Position numbers and translations under genes: made by a program
IMG/VR virus record: IMGVR_UViG_2541047798_000008
Source of the DNA: a virus
Taxonomy: Duplodnaviria > Heunggongvirae > Uroviricota > Caudoviricetes
Reading direction: 5' to 3' (one strand)
Length of the DNA: 31,449 nt
The notes under the pieces: model-generated
The model's database searches: none
What the model was told of the DNA's origin: nothing
The model's input: only the letters and a program-made list of their open reading frames with translations
Shown here: piece by piece, positions 9,101-17,399 of the stretch
How positions within the stretch are numbered: the first letter of the stretch is position 1
How the letters are laid out: every line of letters starts with the position of its first letter

Positions 9101-9316
9101 TTACTCTCCCCGCGCCGCCTTACGCCGGTCCTCTTTGATTTTGAAATACAGGTTAGTCAGGTACGTCAGCAGCCCAAACAGCAGACTCCCCAGCACGCCT
9201 ATTGCCGCCCACTGAGACGGGGAAACCCTGTCCAGCAACTGCAGGAACCAGTAGCCCGTTCCCACCGCTGACGTGGTGTATGACACACCTGTTGTGATTT
9301 TTTCCATCTGGTACAT
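9101..9316 (-). CDS. S: Holin, phage-21 S-type pinholin, with dual start (MYQ-MEK...)
   Basis: [68 protein letters not shown] is close to S21 pinholin. Two in-frame ATGs at 9314-9316 and 9305-9307; GGGAGA upstream. Confidence 0.9.
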
Positions 9317-9392
9317 ACCCCGTCTCCCGTTATCCGGAAGCTCACAACAATATAAAGACCACCGGCACACACCGATGGTCCCTTGCGCAGGC

Positions 9393-9638
9393 TTACATCA
9401 TCATGTCGCTGTCAGGTGTGGGTTCACCGCCATCTGAAGCACTCCCGTCACCCGCGATACCTTCCGGCTCCGGAACCGCTGGTACGCCCAGCAGCTCATC
9501 CAGAATGGCATCCACTTCTGCATCAAGACGCGACTCAAGGTTCTGGCGGAGTTTCTGTTTCAGTGCGCTCAGGACTTCTTCAGAGCGCAGGACTTCCTTC
9601 ACTGCCTCAGCAGTGACCAGGGATGTGATTTCTGACAT
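9393..9638 (-). CDS. Hypothetical acidic protein (81 aa)
   Basis: ATG 9636-9638 inside ORF 9393..9812(-); sequence [17 protein letters not shown]...; no family recognised. Confidence 0.45.
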
Positions 9639-9675
9639 GGGATTTTCTCGTTGAAAGGTGTTGTCAAGAAAGTGA

Positions 9676-9858
9676 CTACGGAATGAGCGGATCTTCGGGT
9701 TTGCTTCCGGCTGACTGACTGGCGCTGATTCTCTCAGCGGCCCTTTTATCAATCTGCCTGCGCCAGAAATCGCGCACTGCCCTGTACCCACCCGAAAGAA
9801 GATACATAACACAGACTGCCATACAGAAGTACAGCATTACCTGATGAATAAATGTCAT
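9676..9858 (-). CDS. Hypothetical small membrane protein (60 aa)
   Basis: ATG 9856-9858; hydrophobic N-terminus MTFIHQVMLYFCMAVCVMYLL. Confidence 0.4.
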   Translation of the reverse strand: MTFIHQVMLYFCMAVCVMYLLSGGYRAVRDFWRRQIDKRAAERISASQSAGSKPEDPLIP

Positions 9859-9994: not shown

Positions 9995-11956
9995 TCATGC
10001 CGCGATGTCCGCGTTGTTCACTTCCACCTTCACACTGTCAATCAGCAGCGTATATGTCGCCGCCTTTGATATGCCTGTCAGTTGCAGTTTGTCCGCCGCC
10101 CCTGATGCCGGAGATTTCACCAGTGTGAACGGCGTCCCCCGTTTCTCATCCAGTACCGGCGTCACCTGAATGCTGTTGTTTCCGGCAAACTCAAAAGCCA
10201 GTGTGTGCCATCCGTTATCAAAGACCCCGAACGTTTCCAGCTTCGCATTCGGCTTCTTGTGGTGCATCGCGTTCAGGTTCGTCGCATCCGTCTGCAGAAA
10301 GAAGGACATCAGCATGTCGTTGCCTTCCTCTGCCAGCGTCACTCCCTCCGGCAGGGACGACAACTGCCAGTAAATGCCCAGGGCAAACTGATTCGGCACC
10401 AGTGAACCCGGCAACTTAAACCGTACGCTCACACGTCCCCCCTTCTTCAGTAACTCCACTCCCTGTCCGGCTGCATCATGCTCCAGAAACCAGATGTGGT
10501 TTTCCGGTTTATTCAGTTGCAGGGCCTTACCTCCCGTAGCCCCCGCATCACTGACCACCGCTTCAGCAATGTTTTTGTTAACATTGTCTCCGCTCGCCGG
10601 TTTGTGATAATAGCGCCAGCCCTGTGATGCCAGGTCTTCGCCGGACGCCAGCAGACTCATCAGGGTTCGGTTACTGACCGGGGCTTCCGGCTCTCTCTCC
10701 GTACCTTCACCGGAAGGTCCGGTGGGCTTCACCGTATCAGGCTGTTTTCCGGTAATGAATTCAGCGTTTCTCCCGGCATGCACAAGAATCGCCGTTGCCA
10801 GACGGTCGGAAATAATCCCACGACGTGCCCATGATCCAAAATGCGTTTTACGGTCGGCCGTCGTCCAGGTTTTGGCGTCCGTTCGACCACCGGCTCCGTA
10901 ATACCCAATATCCGCAACATCCGGATCTTCTGACGGCTCGTTGGTACCCACATTTCGCCCGTTTTCATCCGTCATAAACGGCACAAAGAAGATTTTTTTT
11001 GCGGATTTCGTCTTGTATGCACCATACACCGCATCGTATTGCGAAGAATAAGTCTGCTTCCAGTAGTAGGTCGTGTCGCCACAAATCCAGGGAACCGATG
11101 ACGGAGAGCCCCCGAGACACTGACCTCCGAATTCCGACAGGTCAGAACGATATTTTTCCACCATGGAATCAAACAGCCCCGGCTGAGTGGCGTATGCACC
11201 CTGTTTCAAATCAAACTCGCCCTGCATCCAGACCACTGCAAGCAGAATATTTTTAGGGTTGGCCTTCAGTGCGGCCTGAGTACGGGTAAGCAGGTCCTTG
11301 TACAGTGGCTTATCTACACCCCAGCGTGCCGAGGTCTCGCTTGCGCCGGTGGATTCGCTGAAGGTACCTTCATCGCCCGCCAAAAATGCAGAACCACCAC
11401 GGCAGCACGGAACCAGAAGAATACCGGCATTCGCCGGAATAAACGGCAACAATTTCTTCGCGATATGTAATCCCTGCCCCACGCATCCATACTGAGCTGC
11501 GCTGGCTTTCGGGTGTGAAAACTTACTCAAATCCTGAACATCATGCAGGCAGTGGTCCGCAGGAATAATGTCATTGTAGTTACAGGACGCACCACCCGGC
11601 GTGACAGTGCTGCGACGCGCCAGCTGTTTAATACGCGGGTCCGGACGGTCATATGTCTCCGGCAGCGGAAGCCCTTCACCATACGCCATACCGTTTGACT
11701 GCCCGGCCAGGGCAACAACAAAGTAATACTCCGGGTTGCTGGTGGTGCTGATAACTGCGCCTTCTCCATCCGACGGCTTCACCACCACAGGTGTGGTGAC
11801 ATCACCTTCCGCCGCAATGGCCTGCATCAGGGTATAAGGCGTGATGGCCACCGGACTGCCAAATGGCTGCCACCCCTCCTTCAGTTTTTGTGTCAGTCGT
11901 TTCGCAAGGTCTGACGGCGATGCCGCCCTGACCACGTCATAGTGTTTAAATGCCAT
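9995..11956 (-). CDS. nanS-p: Prophage sialate O-acetylesterase (NanS-p type; DUF1737 N-terminus plus SGNH/SASA esterase domain), 653 aa
   Basis: ATG 11954-11956 with GGGAGGA upstream. N-terminus MAFKHYDVVRAASPSDLAKRL is DUF1737-like; GQSNM-type esterase motif (ALAGQSNG). Sits where Stx phages carry nanS-p, downstream of the tRNAs. Confidence 0.8.
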   Translation of the reverse strand: MAFKHYDVVRAASPSDLAKRLTQKLKEGWQPFGSPVAITPYTLMQAIAAEGDVTTPVVVKPSDGEGAVISTTSNPEYYFVVALAGQSNGMAYGEGLPLPETYDRPDPRIKQLARRSTVTPGGASCNYNDIIPADHCLHDVQDLSKFSHPKASAAQYGCVGQGLHIAKKLLPFIPANAGILLVPCCRGGSAFLAGDEGTFSESTGASETSARWGVDKPLYKDLLTRTQAALKANPKNILLAVVWMQGEFDLKQGAYATQPGLFDSMVEKYRSDLSEFGGQCLGGSPSSVPWICGDTTYYWKQTYSSQYDAVYGAYKTKSAKKIFFVPFMTDENGRNVGTNEPSEDPDVADIGYYGAGGRTDAKTWTTADRKTHFGSWARRGIISDRLATAILVHAGRNAEFITGKQPDTVKPTGPSGEGTEREPEAPVSNRTLMSLLASGEDLASQGWRYYHKPASGDNVNKNIAEAVVSDAGATGGKALQLNKPENHIWFLEHDAAGQGVELLKKGGRVSVRFKLPGSLVPNQFALGIYWQLSSLPEGVTLAEEGNDMLMSFFLQTDATNLNAMHHKKPNAKLETFGVFDNGWHTLAFEFAGNNSIQVTPVLDEKRGTPFTLVKSPASGAADKLQLTGISKAATYTLLIDSVKVEVNNADIAA

Positions 11957-12449
11957 GAATCCTCCCGGCCGGGATAATATTGTGAGTAAAATAAGGAGCG
12001 GGCTGAAGTCCGGAAGTTACAGGACAATGGCAGAAGAGAGACGACAGCCCGCAATTCGAAAAAGACCGCGCAGTTGCGCAGCCTTATGAATTCTGGTTAA
12101 AATCCATTCGATTATAAAAATGTATATCTCATGCTGTTGCCCGAACCCACTCGGGCTTTTTTTTGCCCACAAGAAAGCCCCTCCGGAGAGGGGCTAAAGC
12201 CGCGTATCTGTATCATCATGCACATGATGCCGGGTGCCTCCCGGTGAGTTCAGTATCAGCACCTGAACCCGCACAGAAAGGATAAGGGTCGGTGACAAAA
12301 CACCAGTTGCTGATTGCCCCTCCGCACAGGGGGATTCACCATGCCAGTTTCTTTTAACAAACTCCCCGCAAAACAGACAACTGTCAACCGTCTGAATTGT
12401 GAGACATTTAAAAAAAAGGCCCGCAAAAGCGAGCCGGGAAAAATAAGTC

Positions 12450-12526
12450 TGGCGCGTTGTACTGGATTCGAACCAGTGACCGATTGCTTAGAAGGCAATT
12501 GCTCTGTCCGGCTGAGCTAACAACGC
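12450..12526 (-). tRNA. argO: tRNA-Arg (anticodon UCU)
   Basis: Reverse complement folds as a tRNA (GCGTTGT acceptor arm, anticodon loop CUUCUAA, TTCGAATCC T-loop, CCA end). Confidence 0.85.
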
Positions 12527-12539
12527 ATGATGCAGATAA

Positions 12540-12616
12540 TGGACCGCCATCGGGGACTTGAACCCCGCGCAGCCAGCTTCGAAGGCTGGCGCTCTTTCCT
12601 GATGAGCTAATGGCGG
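12540..12616 (-). tRNA. argN: tRNA-Arg (anticodon UCG)
   Basis: Reverse complement gives a cloverleaf with anticodon loop CUUCGAA and T-arm GGGGTTCAAGTCCCC. The exact 5' end is uncertain by 1 nt. Confidence 0.75.
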
Positions 12617-12623
12617 TATGTGA

Positions 12624-12699
12624 TGGTGGCCCTTGCTGGATTTGAACCAGCGACCTGGCGATTATGAGTCGCTCGCTCTCACCACTGAGCTAAAAGGCC
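12624..12699 (-). tRNA. ileZ: tRNA with CAU anticodon, ileX/ileZ-like (tRNA-Ile2; Met not excluded)
   Basis: Reverse complement GGCCTTTTAGCTCAGTGGTGAGAGCGAGCGACTCATAATCGC...GGGCCACCA closely resembles E. coli ileX. Confidence 0.8.
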
Positions 12700-12725
12700 G
12701 GGCCGAAAATAATAATCAGATGAAA

Positions 12726-13439
12726 TCAAAAATCAAGCCCTTGCATAGATACATATCTGTCTGGCGGGAAGCCATAATAGCGGTGAAATACAGAGATAAA
12801 GTAGGATCTACTTGAATAACCGCATTTTGCTGCTACAGCCTGTCCATATCCATGCCGGGAACATAACATATTTACAGCAACCCGCATCCGTTCCTCAAGT
12901 AACAAATTACTGAACCTGAGACCTTCATCCTTGAGTTTTTTCTTTAACAAGCTCTCACTCATATGCAACTGTAGAGCAATCGCACCAAGCGTCCAGCTTG
13001 CTGATATATCTGTTTGAATTATCGCTCTGACTTTGGCACTTATACTGGATACACATCCACTTAAAAATAATGACATCCGTTCATCTGATTCAAACAGCGA
13101 CAGGCAGGCCATCATAAGAAACATATCCGTGGTCTCTCCGGAAAGTCTCTGACTGGTAATTAAAGCCACAGTCAACGCAGGATTGTTGGGTTCCAGCAAC
13201 AAGTAAAGCGGAATGTCAGTCAGAGGACCTCTCGTCAGCTTATGCTGGCTTTCCAGATATTGACTTACTATAGAATGGCTTATATCGACAATTTTAACTT
13301 TGCCATAATGCATAAGGAAAAGCTCCCTGATGCATTTGGTGGCCAGAACGACTGAGCCGGGCTTAAGTGACAATGTATCCTTTTCAAGAAAAATATTAAT
13401 TGGGGAACAAACCATGATAACTGAACAGATAGCAGTCAT
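12726..13439 (-). CDS. AraC-family transcriptional regulator (237 aa), AT-rich moron
   Basis: C-terminal AraC-type double HTH (WTLGAIALQLHMSESLLKKKLKDEGLRFSNLLLEERMRVAVNML...CGYSSRSYFISVFHRYYGFPP). ATG 13437-13439 without a strong SD. Confidence 0.75.
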   Translation of the reverse strand: MTAICSVIMVCSPINIFLEKDTLSLKPGSVVLATKCIRELFLMHYGKVKIVDISHSIVSQYLESQHKLTRGPLTDIPLYLLLEPNNPALTVALITSQRLSGETTDMFLMMACLSLFESDERMSLFLSGCVSSISAKVRAIIQTDISASWTLGAIALQLHMSESLLKKKLKDEGLRFSNLLLEERMRVAVNMLCSRHGYGQAVAAKCGYSSRSYFISVFHRYYGFPPDRYVSMQGLDF

Positions 13440-13575
13440 TATAATTTTACTTTAATTAGCAATCGGTTAGCTTAATTATAGCCCCAAAAAGTAAATTCTC
13501 ATCAACACATAAGCAAATGACTGACAGGTGCCGCTAACACCCACCAGCCGCCCATTTACCACAAATAAAAAACCT

Positions 13576-13773
13576 TCAGGACTGAAGGACTCTGTAACAA
13601 CCAAACTGATAGTCTGCCAGACCCGCCATAACCAGCTGGGTCAGTATTAACTGGCAGCGTTCGCGTGAAAGGTAAGTATTCTGCGCAATCTCCCCGACTG
13701 TCGCCGGGTCGGTGACGCTTAATTCATTAAACACCACTCTGGCGGTTTCTGTCATATCCTGCTGTTTTAGCAT
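13576..13773 (-). CDS. Small winged-helix regulator, PapI/FaeA-like (about 65 aa)
   Basis: Start placed at ATG 13771-13773 (alternative ATG 13753-13755). VVFNELSVTDPATVGEIAQNTYLSRERCQLILTQLVMAGL resembles PapI-family regulators. Confidence 0.5.
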   Translation of the reverse strand: MLKQQDMTETARVVFNELSVTDPATVGEIAQNTYLSRERCQLILTQLVMAGLADYQFGCYRVLQS

Positions 13774-13895
13774 GTCTTTTTCCCTTTTCCGGTTAACGTG
13801 ACACACCAATAACTCTTGTCGAAAAAGCCAGCAAGCTGAAAGACAGGTATTCACCGCCACCAGCGCGTTTACTGTACTGACGCGATTTCAGTCAT

Positions 13896-13919
13896 AAAAA
13901 ACCCGCCAGGCGGCGGGGT
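13896..13919 (-). terminator. Intrinsic terminator downstream of Q (tR'-like)
   Basis: Minus-strand RNA CCCGCC-GCCU-GGCGGG followed by UUUUUU. Confidence 0.55.
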
Positions 13920-13959
13920 GTAAAAAATCTTCTAACGTCAGGCATAAAACGCCCATCGT

Positions 13960-13995
13960 TAGGGCAAATTTACCACAGATTCGGGAAAAATCAAC
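13960..13995 (-). promoter_or_regulatory. Candidate late promoter pR' (-35 TTGATT, 16-nt spacer, -10 TAAATT) immediately after Q
   Basis: Minus strand TTGATTTTTCCCGAATCTGTGGTAAATT; position as for lambda pR', with the terminator about 50 nt downstream. Confidence 0.35.
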
Positions 13996-16701: not shown

Positions 16702-16857
16702 TTACTCCTCAGGTTCGTAAGCTGTGAAGACAGCGACCTCCGTCTGGCCGGTTCGGATTCGTACCTCGCAGAGGTCTTTCCTCGTTACCAGTGCCGTCAC
16801 TATGACGGTTAAACAGATGACGATCAGGGCGATTAGCATCGCCTTTTGCTGCTTCAT
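16702..16857 (-). CDS. hokD: Hok-family type I toxin (HokD/RelF-like), 51 aa
   Basis: MKQQKAMLIALIVICLTVIVTALVTRKDLCEVRIRTGQTEVAVFTAYEPEE is a Hok-family sequence. ATG 16855-16857. No relBE genes are present upstream. Confidence 0.85.
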   Translation of the reverse strand: MKQQKAMLIALIVICLTVIVTALVTRKDLCEVRIRTGQTEVAVFTAYEPEE

Positions 16858-17399
16858 AGCCTGCTTCTCCTTGCCTTTCGGCACGTAAGAGGCTAACCTA
16901 CGTTTGTGAAGCATAGATTGGGCCTCAGATTAATGTTAAACGTCTTGCAGGACGCGTAATGTTAACTGGGGCTTTTCTCTATCTGCCGTTGGTGTTCATG
17001 CCCGAGGCAGATAGCCTCAAGCACCCGCAGCAATTCTACTTAACTCACGTCACCTCGCCAATATAAAATCAATCAGAGAGGTGATTCATAAGAACGATAA
17101 CAAGACAATAAATTGCCATTACTGCCGCAATAGCCAGCGCACATTTCAGAACCAGCACGATGACCTCCCATATTTGACGTACACGCGCATGGTTCAATAT
17201 GTAGCAACCTATTTCTTGCTTCAATATAAAATCAGGTATTGTTGTATAACTATTTAACTAATTCCCTATCCCCACATCTCAGGCGCTCAACGTCTGTGTT
17301 CGGGGCGTTTTTTAATACCTTACCCCCAGCGGCAAATCGAATACACCACCAGCGCCACCGCCATCGCAATTCCTACCGTTGTTAATGCTTCAGGCCTGG

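Follow-up and report, generated by a model that had tools for sequence, protein, structure and literature searches.

The stretch of viral DNA analysed here (the window; 31,449 nucleotides, IMG/VR record IMGVR_UViG_2541047798_000008, Caudoviricetes) carries three tRNA genes and a gene for a NanS-p esterase in the order known from Shiga toxin (Stx) phages, with no toxin genes between them. We conclude, with a probability of roughly 0.9, that these genes belong to the Q-dependent late (moron) region of a lambdoid prophage at serU that lacks stx. The window is 100% identical to a segment of the Escherichia coli AR_0017 chromosome (NZ_CP024886.1), where annotation by the Prokaryotic Genome Annotation Pipeline (PGAP) places at serU a lambdoid prophage with tRNA-Ser and mtfA at its boundary. 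The late genes are all on the minus strand and the features are thus read from high to low coordinates; in this direction the proposed modular order would be Q, PR'/tR', an AT-rich regulator moron, the tRNA unit, an unoccupied cassette slot, a convergent pair of small RNA (sRNA) genes, a structured leader, nanS-p and the lysis genes. The architecture typical of Stx-phage late regions was found, with Q, tRNAs, slot, sRNA pair, nanS-p and holin/endolysin on a single strand. An initial annotation, made from the letters alone, had already placed the tRNAs and the esterase in Stx-phage order without stx between them; the comparison bears this out and adds the strand (minus), which had been left unstated. 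The features around the slot are as follows.

12709..12736, minus strand: putative promoter-like site before the tRNA cluster, TTGATT-16-TATTAT (consensus scan, 9/12 matches)
12624..12699, minus strand: tRNA with anticodon CAU (CAT), ileZ type (ARAGORN; Rfam 70.3 bits)
12540..12616, minus strand: tRNA-Arg (UCG), argN position (ARAGORN; Rfam 58.0 bits)
12450..12526, minus strand: tRNA-Arg (UCU), argO position (ARAGORN; Rfam 70.1 bits)
12410..12435, minus strand: intrinsic terminator closing the tRNA cluster, GGCTCGC-TTTT-GCGGGCC followed by T8 (terminator scan)
12406..12409: unoccupied slot for stx; Stx2-phage homology runs to 12409 and restarts at 12406
12165..12406, minus strand: STnc100/EcOnc27-type sRNA gene, putatively Hfq-binding (Rfam core 12373..12165)
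12109..12164, plus strand: AsxR/AgvB-family anti-sRNA gene, convergent with the STnc100-type RNA (Rfam core 12109..12161)
12074..12103, plus strand: predicted anti-sRNA promoter, TTGCGC, 18-nt spacer, TAAAAT, 5 nt to the start, near-identical to the AsxR promoter region
11957..12108, minus strand: structured nanS-p leader, with a 10-bp hairpin and U-run at 12085..12062, a long hairpin, and a GGGAGGA Shine-Dalgarno sequence before the ATG
9995..11956, minus strand: nanS-p, 653 aa, with DUF1737 (residues 3-50), a NanS-like SASA core (73-391) and a lectin-like C-terminal domain (464-648)

The slot is confined to one point, with the tRNA-cluster terminator to its left and the 5' edge of the sRNA block to its right. 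In pairwise alignments, window 12715..12409 corresponds to the tRNAs plus 41 bp of Stx2d/Stx2a phages (92.6-93.9% identity), and window 12406..11900 matches Stx2d/Stx2a sequence from 41 bp past the stx2B stop codon (76.6-78.7% identity). Both stx flanks are therefore present in the window and abut within 2 bp (12409/12406). At the same position Stx2a, Stx2d and Stx2k phages hold 1,332 bp, a cassette made up of a 50-bp stx2 upstream region, stx2A, stx2B and a 41-bp tail. In the Stx1 phage YYZ-2008 the block-edge motif (TAAAT..CTCAATTCAG) is found about 65 bp past stx1B, and the right boundary is the same. The initial annotation had suggested that the whole 490-bp interval 11957..12449 might be an empty toxin site. 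The empty site stands, since both flanks abut, but it is one point and not the entire interval, the remainder of which also occurs in Stx phages, downstream of stxB. The stx cassette can accordingly be described as a discrete 1.3-kb module with fixed ends, which follows a tRNA terminator and precedes the start of an sRNA gene.

Nothing similar to stx was detected anywhere in the window at the DNA or protein level: blastn with the stx1 and stx2 cassettes and tblastn with Stx1A/B and Stx2A/B returned chance-level matches only. The window does not carry the stxA and stxB genes by which an Stx-converting phage is defined. As its flanks are collinear in alignments with those of Stx2a, Stx2d, Stx2k and Stx1 phages and stx DNA is absent, the backbone is, as first proposed, an stx-negative relative of Stx phages.

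An empty slot could be a naive site or the scar of a lost cassette, and the initial annotation had allowed for both. A deletion scar would mean that the toxin cassette had been lost from an Stx2 phage, such as a relative of the Stx2k type with the same left flank. The left flank (tR' to the tRNAs) shares 94% identity with phage phiSTEC1575-Stx2k, with homology stopping exactly at the start of the stx2k cassette, and loss of stx phages or genes in Shiga toxin-producing E. coli is discussed in the literature, a preprint on Pas-sRNA giving repeated stx loss as one option. However, no cassette nucleotide is left in the window. Comparison of 11957..12449 with stx-phage genomes revealed no cassette remnant, and neither blastn nor tblastn found stx remnants at the junction, including the 50-bp upstream part and the 41-bp tail. 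The junction itself (T8-AAATGTCTCACAATTCAG) is shared with Nil3 (AM051322), a phage from an stx-negative O157:H7, and with the tRNA-less phage PhiR12, in which the TTTTTAAAT..CTCACAATTCAG motif is part of the sRNA block; the block-edge motif is likewise present in PhiR12 phages lacking any tRNAs. Junction sequences 97-99.5% identical to that of the window were found in Nil3, PhiR49_2 and vB_EcoS-611R1, where tRNA-Arg, terminator and STnc100 block are contiguous as they are here. Furthermore, 1,027 of the 5,426 complete E. coli genomes (about 19%) have the tRNA-to-sRNA junction in contiguous form, with several copies in O157:H7 strains. Finally, the right flank is just 77-79% identical to Stx2 phages, and mere loss of the cassette would have left a much closer identity. 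A scar is thus very improbable. Because neither a remnant nor end repeats were found and the same junction occurs in Nil3 and in 1,027 genomes, the junction is best read as an unoccupied moron-slot allele and not as a recent deletion scar; roughly one in five complete E. coli genomes has this allele. The whole segment might also have been exchanged through homologous recombination in its flanks, which would leave no scar and would count as allele exchange. We also considered transposition or site-specific insertion of the stx2 cassette via terminal repeats and rejected it, as the ends share one 6-mer per orientation and 71% of shuffled sequences match this for direct repeats.

The interval to the right of the tRNAs had been described in the initial annotation as having no open reading frame, only hairpins and terminator-like elements. 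The first half of this description holds, since no credible protein gene is found in 11957..12449, but the interval contains two sRNA genes, one of the STnc100 family (131.7 bits) and one of the AsxR family (63.0 bits). In an Rfam scan at gathering thresholds the STnc100 model (RF02076, threshold 47 bits) matched over positions 1-206 of 206, and a terminator scan placed a terminator hairpin of this RNA at 12195..12176. When the published Hfq peak and the approximately 235/247-nt size of EcOnc27 are mapped to the window via an Stx2a phage, the 3' end falls at the end of the STnc100 model. The 5' end would probably lie near 12403-12415, within about 3-10 nt of the junction. Because of this proximity, the cassette position in Stx phages would be immediately upstream of the start of the STnc100-type sRNA.

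The promoter of this RNA is less clear. A -10-like TTAAAT/TGTAAT at the block edge is kept in all contexts compared, without an accompanying conserved -35. A conserved TTGACA at 12387..12382 was tried as a -35 and discarded: it lies just 8-9 nt before the Rfam start, downstream of the size-derived 5' end, and has no usable -10 at 16-19 nt.

The position of the STnc100 gene, upstream of nanS-p and convergent with the anti-sRNA position, is the same in the Stx2d, Stx2a and PhiR12 phages compared. The Stx2a phage has this convergent pair in the interval from stx2B to nanS-p, with scores of 206.9 bits for STnc100 and 88.1 bits for AsxR. Convergent sRNA genes in the moron region downstream of PR' have been described by Tree et al. 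(2014; PMC4104026), who located EcOnc27 and EcOnc02 (AsxR) 3' of stx2B in Sp5 and found the same organisation in prophages Sp3, Sp4, Sp9, Sp10, Sp11, Sp15 and Sp17; the stx-negative Sakai prophages Sp3, Sp4, Sp9, Sp10, Sp11 and Sp17 resemble the window in this respect. STnc100 is equivalent to EcOnc27/sRNA103, an Hfq-binding sRNA encoded just downstream of stx2B (PMC12711010), and its occurrence as a discrete Hfq-bound RNA has been shown for the Sakai and EDL933 homologues (Tree et al. 2014, supplement; PMC12711010). In a 2026 preprint from the Storz laboratory, STnc100, AsxR and AgvB are listed among the genes often found beside the esterase gene.

One could still argue that the interval holds cis-acting signals only, namely terminators and the nanS-p leader, and that the Rfam matches are conserved phage non-coding DNA. 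In favour of this view, at least three terminator-type hairpins are present in the interval, the function of STnc100 is still called unclear or hypothetical in recent papers, and the long unit has a weak fold z-score. Against this, the homologous RNAs of O157 Sakai have been recovered on Hfq, with transcription starts or sizes measured; AsxR and AgvB have been shown to antagonise FnrS and GcvB; overexpression of EcOnc27/sRNA103 changed fimZ and espA transcript levels (PMC12711010); and the promoter and terminator of the anti-sRNA are nearly unchanged in the window. We therefore regard a purely cis-acting interval as extremely improbable and retain the two sRNA genes. It is advisable to run an sRNA scan on any gap in a prophage late region that seems to hold only hairpins before treating it as empty.

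Regulation of stxB by STnc100, via an 11-nt complementarity, was proposed in a 2025 paper. Because the block is conserved at >1,000 stx-free junctions, its role does not appear to be tied to stxB, and our data suggest, contrary to that hypothesis, that the main role of STnc100/EcOnc27 is independent of stx.

The second sRNA gene of the pair matched the AsxR model (RF02703, 'anti-stx2 sRNA') at 63.0 bits against a threshold of 63, a borderline hit, and reached 43.4 bits with the AgvB model (RF02702), below its threshold of 56. It has the features of the family: a conserved 3' body of about 42 nt with a Rho-independent terminator (12139..12156 followed by T8; terminator scan and fold), a variable 5' end of 14-18 nt, and a convergent location in the moron region. 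It shares position, orientation, length (about 53-56 nt), promoter and terminator with AsxR, AgvB and EcOnc03 (Tree et al. 2014). Since the start of AsxR transcription was mapped in O157 Sakai (PMC4104026) and the corresponding promoter is near-identical here, the promoter is probably active in AR_0017 as well.

The window allele is identical to the AsxR of the Stx2a phage at 47/53 nt, with six substitutions (nt 8, 13, 15, 16, 27 and 28); its 5' region is closest to AsxR and its 3' body is identical to EcOnc03. Tree et al. (2014) place the AsxR-FnrS pairing between the 5' end of AsxR and the terminator loop of FnrS, and we could reproduce computationally an 11-bp duplex of AsxR nt 1-11 with the FnrS terminator loop and 3' stem. 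In the window, the U8A change replaces a G-U pair in the middle of this duplex. The predicted seed pairing to the FnrS terminator is -7.3 kcal/mol for AsxR, although even AsxR is not clearly above shuffled seeds (fraction 0.106), and in this weakly discriminating calculation the window allele reaches -4.6 kcal/mol, the level of the members that do not target FnrS (AgvB, -4.6; EcOnc03, -3.5 kcal/mol). The allele is found at ≥95% identity in 181 genomes, for example S88. It was not found in O157 strains, where the canonical form is present (best match about 88%), and it differs from the three published Sakai alleles. A tentative and rather unlikely reading is that it represents a fourth functional 5'-seed variant, common in strains of the extraintestinal pathogenic E. 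coli type, which would no longer sponge FnrS and would target a different core sRNA. If true, stx-negative prophages of extraintestinal E. coli would have their own rewiring of the host sRNA network.

At the corresponding place, the Stx2d phage and PhiR12 phages (4610..4740 of the phage sequences, plus strand) carry a different terminator-ended sequence (…CCTTGCCGCCCGCGTCTCCCAGCGCGGGCTTTTTTTT) convergent to STnc100. Neither the AsxR nor the AgvB model gives a threshold match to it, and it could represent a further family of anti-sRNA type at this slot.

On the left side of the slot, the tRNA genes were called with ARAGORN and scored with the Rfam covariance model RF00005 (gathering threshold 29 bits). 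All three pass, at 58.0-70.3 bits, and the initial assignment of an ileZ-argN-argO-type trio is hereby upheld. The cluster is 92-94% identical in nucleotide sequence to that of Stx2 phages, and the homologue of the UCU tRNA is annotated as argO in Stx2a phages. The CAT tRNA is called Met by ARAGORN, from the anticodon alone, and tRNA-Ile by PGAP and in the record of phage Nil3; the latter annotation fits a tRNA that appears to be of the ileZ type (tRNA-Ile2, lysidine). The terminator that closes the cluster (hairpin 12435..12418 plus T8) has a folding free energy of -14.0 (z = -4.09) and is kept in Stx2a, Stx2d and Stx2k phages, directly upstream of the stx2 cassette.

At the other end of the region, NanS-p scored above the Pfam cutoffs for DUF1737 (57.9 bits), SASA (36.3 bits) and DUF6645 (147.4 bits). 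Residues 73-391 align to E. coli NanS (YjhS; 3PT5) with E=1.4e-118, the esterase core aligning end to end, while the chromosomal NanS lacks the DUF1737 and C-terminal domains. Residues 464-648 align with E=1.9e-60 to the structure of the NanS-p C-terminal domain (6YP6), that is, to the lectin-like domain of phi24B NanS-p. In SGNH/SASA esterases the serine of the GQSN motif and a C-terminal histidine have a catalytic role. Both residues are present here, with GQSN at 85-88 (Ser87) and His372 in THFGS aligned to identical residues of NanS, which substantiates the initial assignment of an SGNH/SASA-like esterase; NCBIfam gave no equivalog for this protein. The tRNAs, both sRNA genes and the esterase are thus bona fide members of their families by covariance or profile scores. 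The C-terminal domain is just 36-57% identical to those of the Stx-phage NanS-p alleles compared. In published work nanS-p is located downstream of stx2a in all Stx2a phages analysed and also in non-Stx prophages, and the protein has a lectin-like C-terminal domain (PMC10462455). The leader of the gene has a fold z-score of -3.29 and is 76-84% conserved in Stx and non-Stx phages.

The initial annotation had interpreted nanS-p as a host-adaptation moron. As a sole role this is too narrow, since a 2026 preprint reports that the phi24B homologue, gp84, is a processed, abundant virion protein that decorates the capsid, its DUF1737 anchoring via Tyr42 on the central hexons of the T=9 capsid. It could accordingly be proposed that the window gene is mainly a virion structural gene, its product a DUF1737-anchored capsid decoration as in phi24B, and not a moron for lysogen fitness: the family member of phi24B is abundant in virions, its DUF1737 sits on the central hexons, and DUF1737 is retained in the window protein. 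The prophage, however, has lambda-type head and tail genes, including its own decoration protein (PGAP), unlike the phi24B capsid, and the DUF1737 anchor loop is unlike the phi24B/933W type and three residues shorter. Attachment of the window protein to a lambda-type head would be by analogy with phi24B, and capsid and esterase/fitness roles are not mutually exclusive. We consider a mainly structural role doubtful, and keep nanS-p as an esterase gene of the moron region. Within the window DUF1737 (11792..11956, residues 1-55) the shorter loop (..SPVAITPYTLMQ..) is common to the YYZ-2008 and PhiR12 alleles and is not that of 933W/phi24B. At least two loop variants exist among the alleles compared, and the variant may co-vary with head type.

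Upstream of the tRNAs, the beginning of the late region could be recognised by Q (273 aa, PF03589) and by the following features.

13967..13994, minus strand: putative late promoter PR', TTGATT, 16-nt spacer, TAAATT, read from sequence after the Q stop codon
13902..13966, minus strand: tR'-type terminator hairpins at 13966..13950 and 13917..13902, each followed by a T-run (terminator scan)
13576..13860, minus strand: small TrmB-like open reading frame (weak Pfam TrmB match, E=0.008; PGAP calls a shorter 13773..13576)
13502..13475, minus strand: putative promoter-like site of the AraC-like gene (consensus scan)
12726..13439, minus strand: gene for an AraC-family (YdeO/GadX-like) regulator (Pfam HTH_AraC and HTH_18)

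The assignment of PR' is made because the site lies directly after Q, as in lambdoid phages. The fold of the tR' region (13975..13895) has a z-score of -3.42. Between Q/tR' and the tRNAs, the regulator moron (12726..13860) is AT-rich, with a GC content of 0.42. The AraC-like protein of the window scored 102 bits with the NCBIfam YdeO model, below its cutoff, and was also sub-threshold for GadX. The TrmB-like frame is annotated 'TrmB family' in related genomes and in phiSTEC1575-Stx2k. Other prophage AraC-like regulators are known, among them PsrA, PsrB and PatE, which act on acid resistance and on the locus of enterocyte effacement in enterohaemorrhagic E. coli.

Through its AraC-like gene, whose product is 95% identical in amino acid sequence, we found phiSTEC1575-Stx2k (OQ243220.1), in which homology to the window begins at tR' (13920) and extends through the TrmB-like and AraC-like genes, the tRNAs and the terminator, at 94% identity over 1.5 kb, to nucleotide 12409. 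This phage carries stx2k, followed by only a truncated STnc100 (64.9 bits), and in its 9306..9835 region an iraM-like anti-adapter gene on the opposite strand replaces the AsxR-type RNA and nanS-p. Modularity thus extends to the right side of the slot. With Stx2 phages of the 933W, Sp5 and phi24B type the window shares the tRNA trio with its terminator and the gene order down to holin and lysozyme, and its convergent sRNA pair and nanS-p leader are 77-79% identical to theirs. It differs from them in the missing 1,332-bp stx2 cassette, in the type of Q, in its lambda-type head and tail, and in NanS-p, whose overall identity is only about 60% and whose DUF1737 loop is of another type. In the Stx2d phage examined, a DNA methylase gene takes the place of the TrmB-like and AraC-like moron between Q and the tRNAs. 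The stx-negative phages and prophages with the same junction differ from the window in their Q and nin regions.

By analogy with the homologues, in the lysogen the tRNAs, the STnc100-type sRNA and the anti-sRNA would each be transcribed independently, every unit ending at its own terminator. Once the prophage is induced, RNA polymerase modified by Q would read from PR' past every terminator and on into nanS-p and the lysis genes. The tRNAs would supply decoding of AUA, AGA/AGG and CGA codons, and codon counts are consistent with such a role: ATA, AGA, AGG and CGA together amount to 3.7-5.3 per 100 codons in the Q, TrmB-like, AraC-like, RusA and lysozyme genes, and to 1.2 in nanS-p, a 3-5-fold difference. 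The anti-sRNA would bind Hfq and sponge a core-genome sRNA via its variable 5' end, and NanS-p would remove 9-O-acetyl groups from sialic acids.

Several points weigh against the reading of the region as a working late region with two independent sRNA genes. For the STnc100-type RNA, the 5' end was extrapolated from Northern sizes measured for another strain, no convincing -35 is conserved upstream, and the RNA could be processed from longer transcripts; the fold of the whole unit is not unusually stable (z = -1.44). The AsxR score sits precisely on the gathering threshold. The sRNA promoters were read from sequence, as was PR', which at 8/12 is below the threshold of the consensus scan, and expression in AR_0017 is extrapolated from published homologues. 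Lastly, the integrase is frameshifted (PGAP). The prophage may not be inducible, and Q-dependent transcription as modelled here would then be vestigial.

The arrangement as a whole is common and has been described before; the one mildly new item is the anti-sRNA allele. The region is a clean example of a known modular design, with little novelty. The prophage end is marked by two further features.

30469..30558: tRNA-Ser (CGA; serU) at the prophage end, beside mtfA
about 29391..30441: frameshifted integrase gene next to the serU tRNA-Ser (PGAP)

With such an integrase the prophage may be unable to excise. Elsewhere in the window, Rfam detected a sok antitoxin RNA next to hokD (16852..17026, minus strand; 113.1 bits) and a DicF RNA upstream of dicB (25954..26005, plus strand; 76.9 bits), and a relBE pair is annotated in the immunity region.

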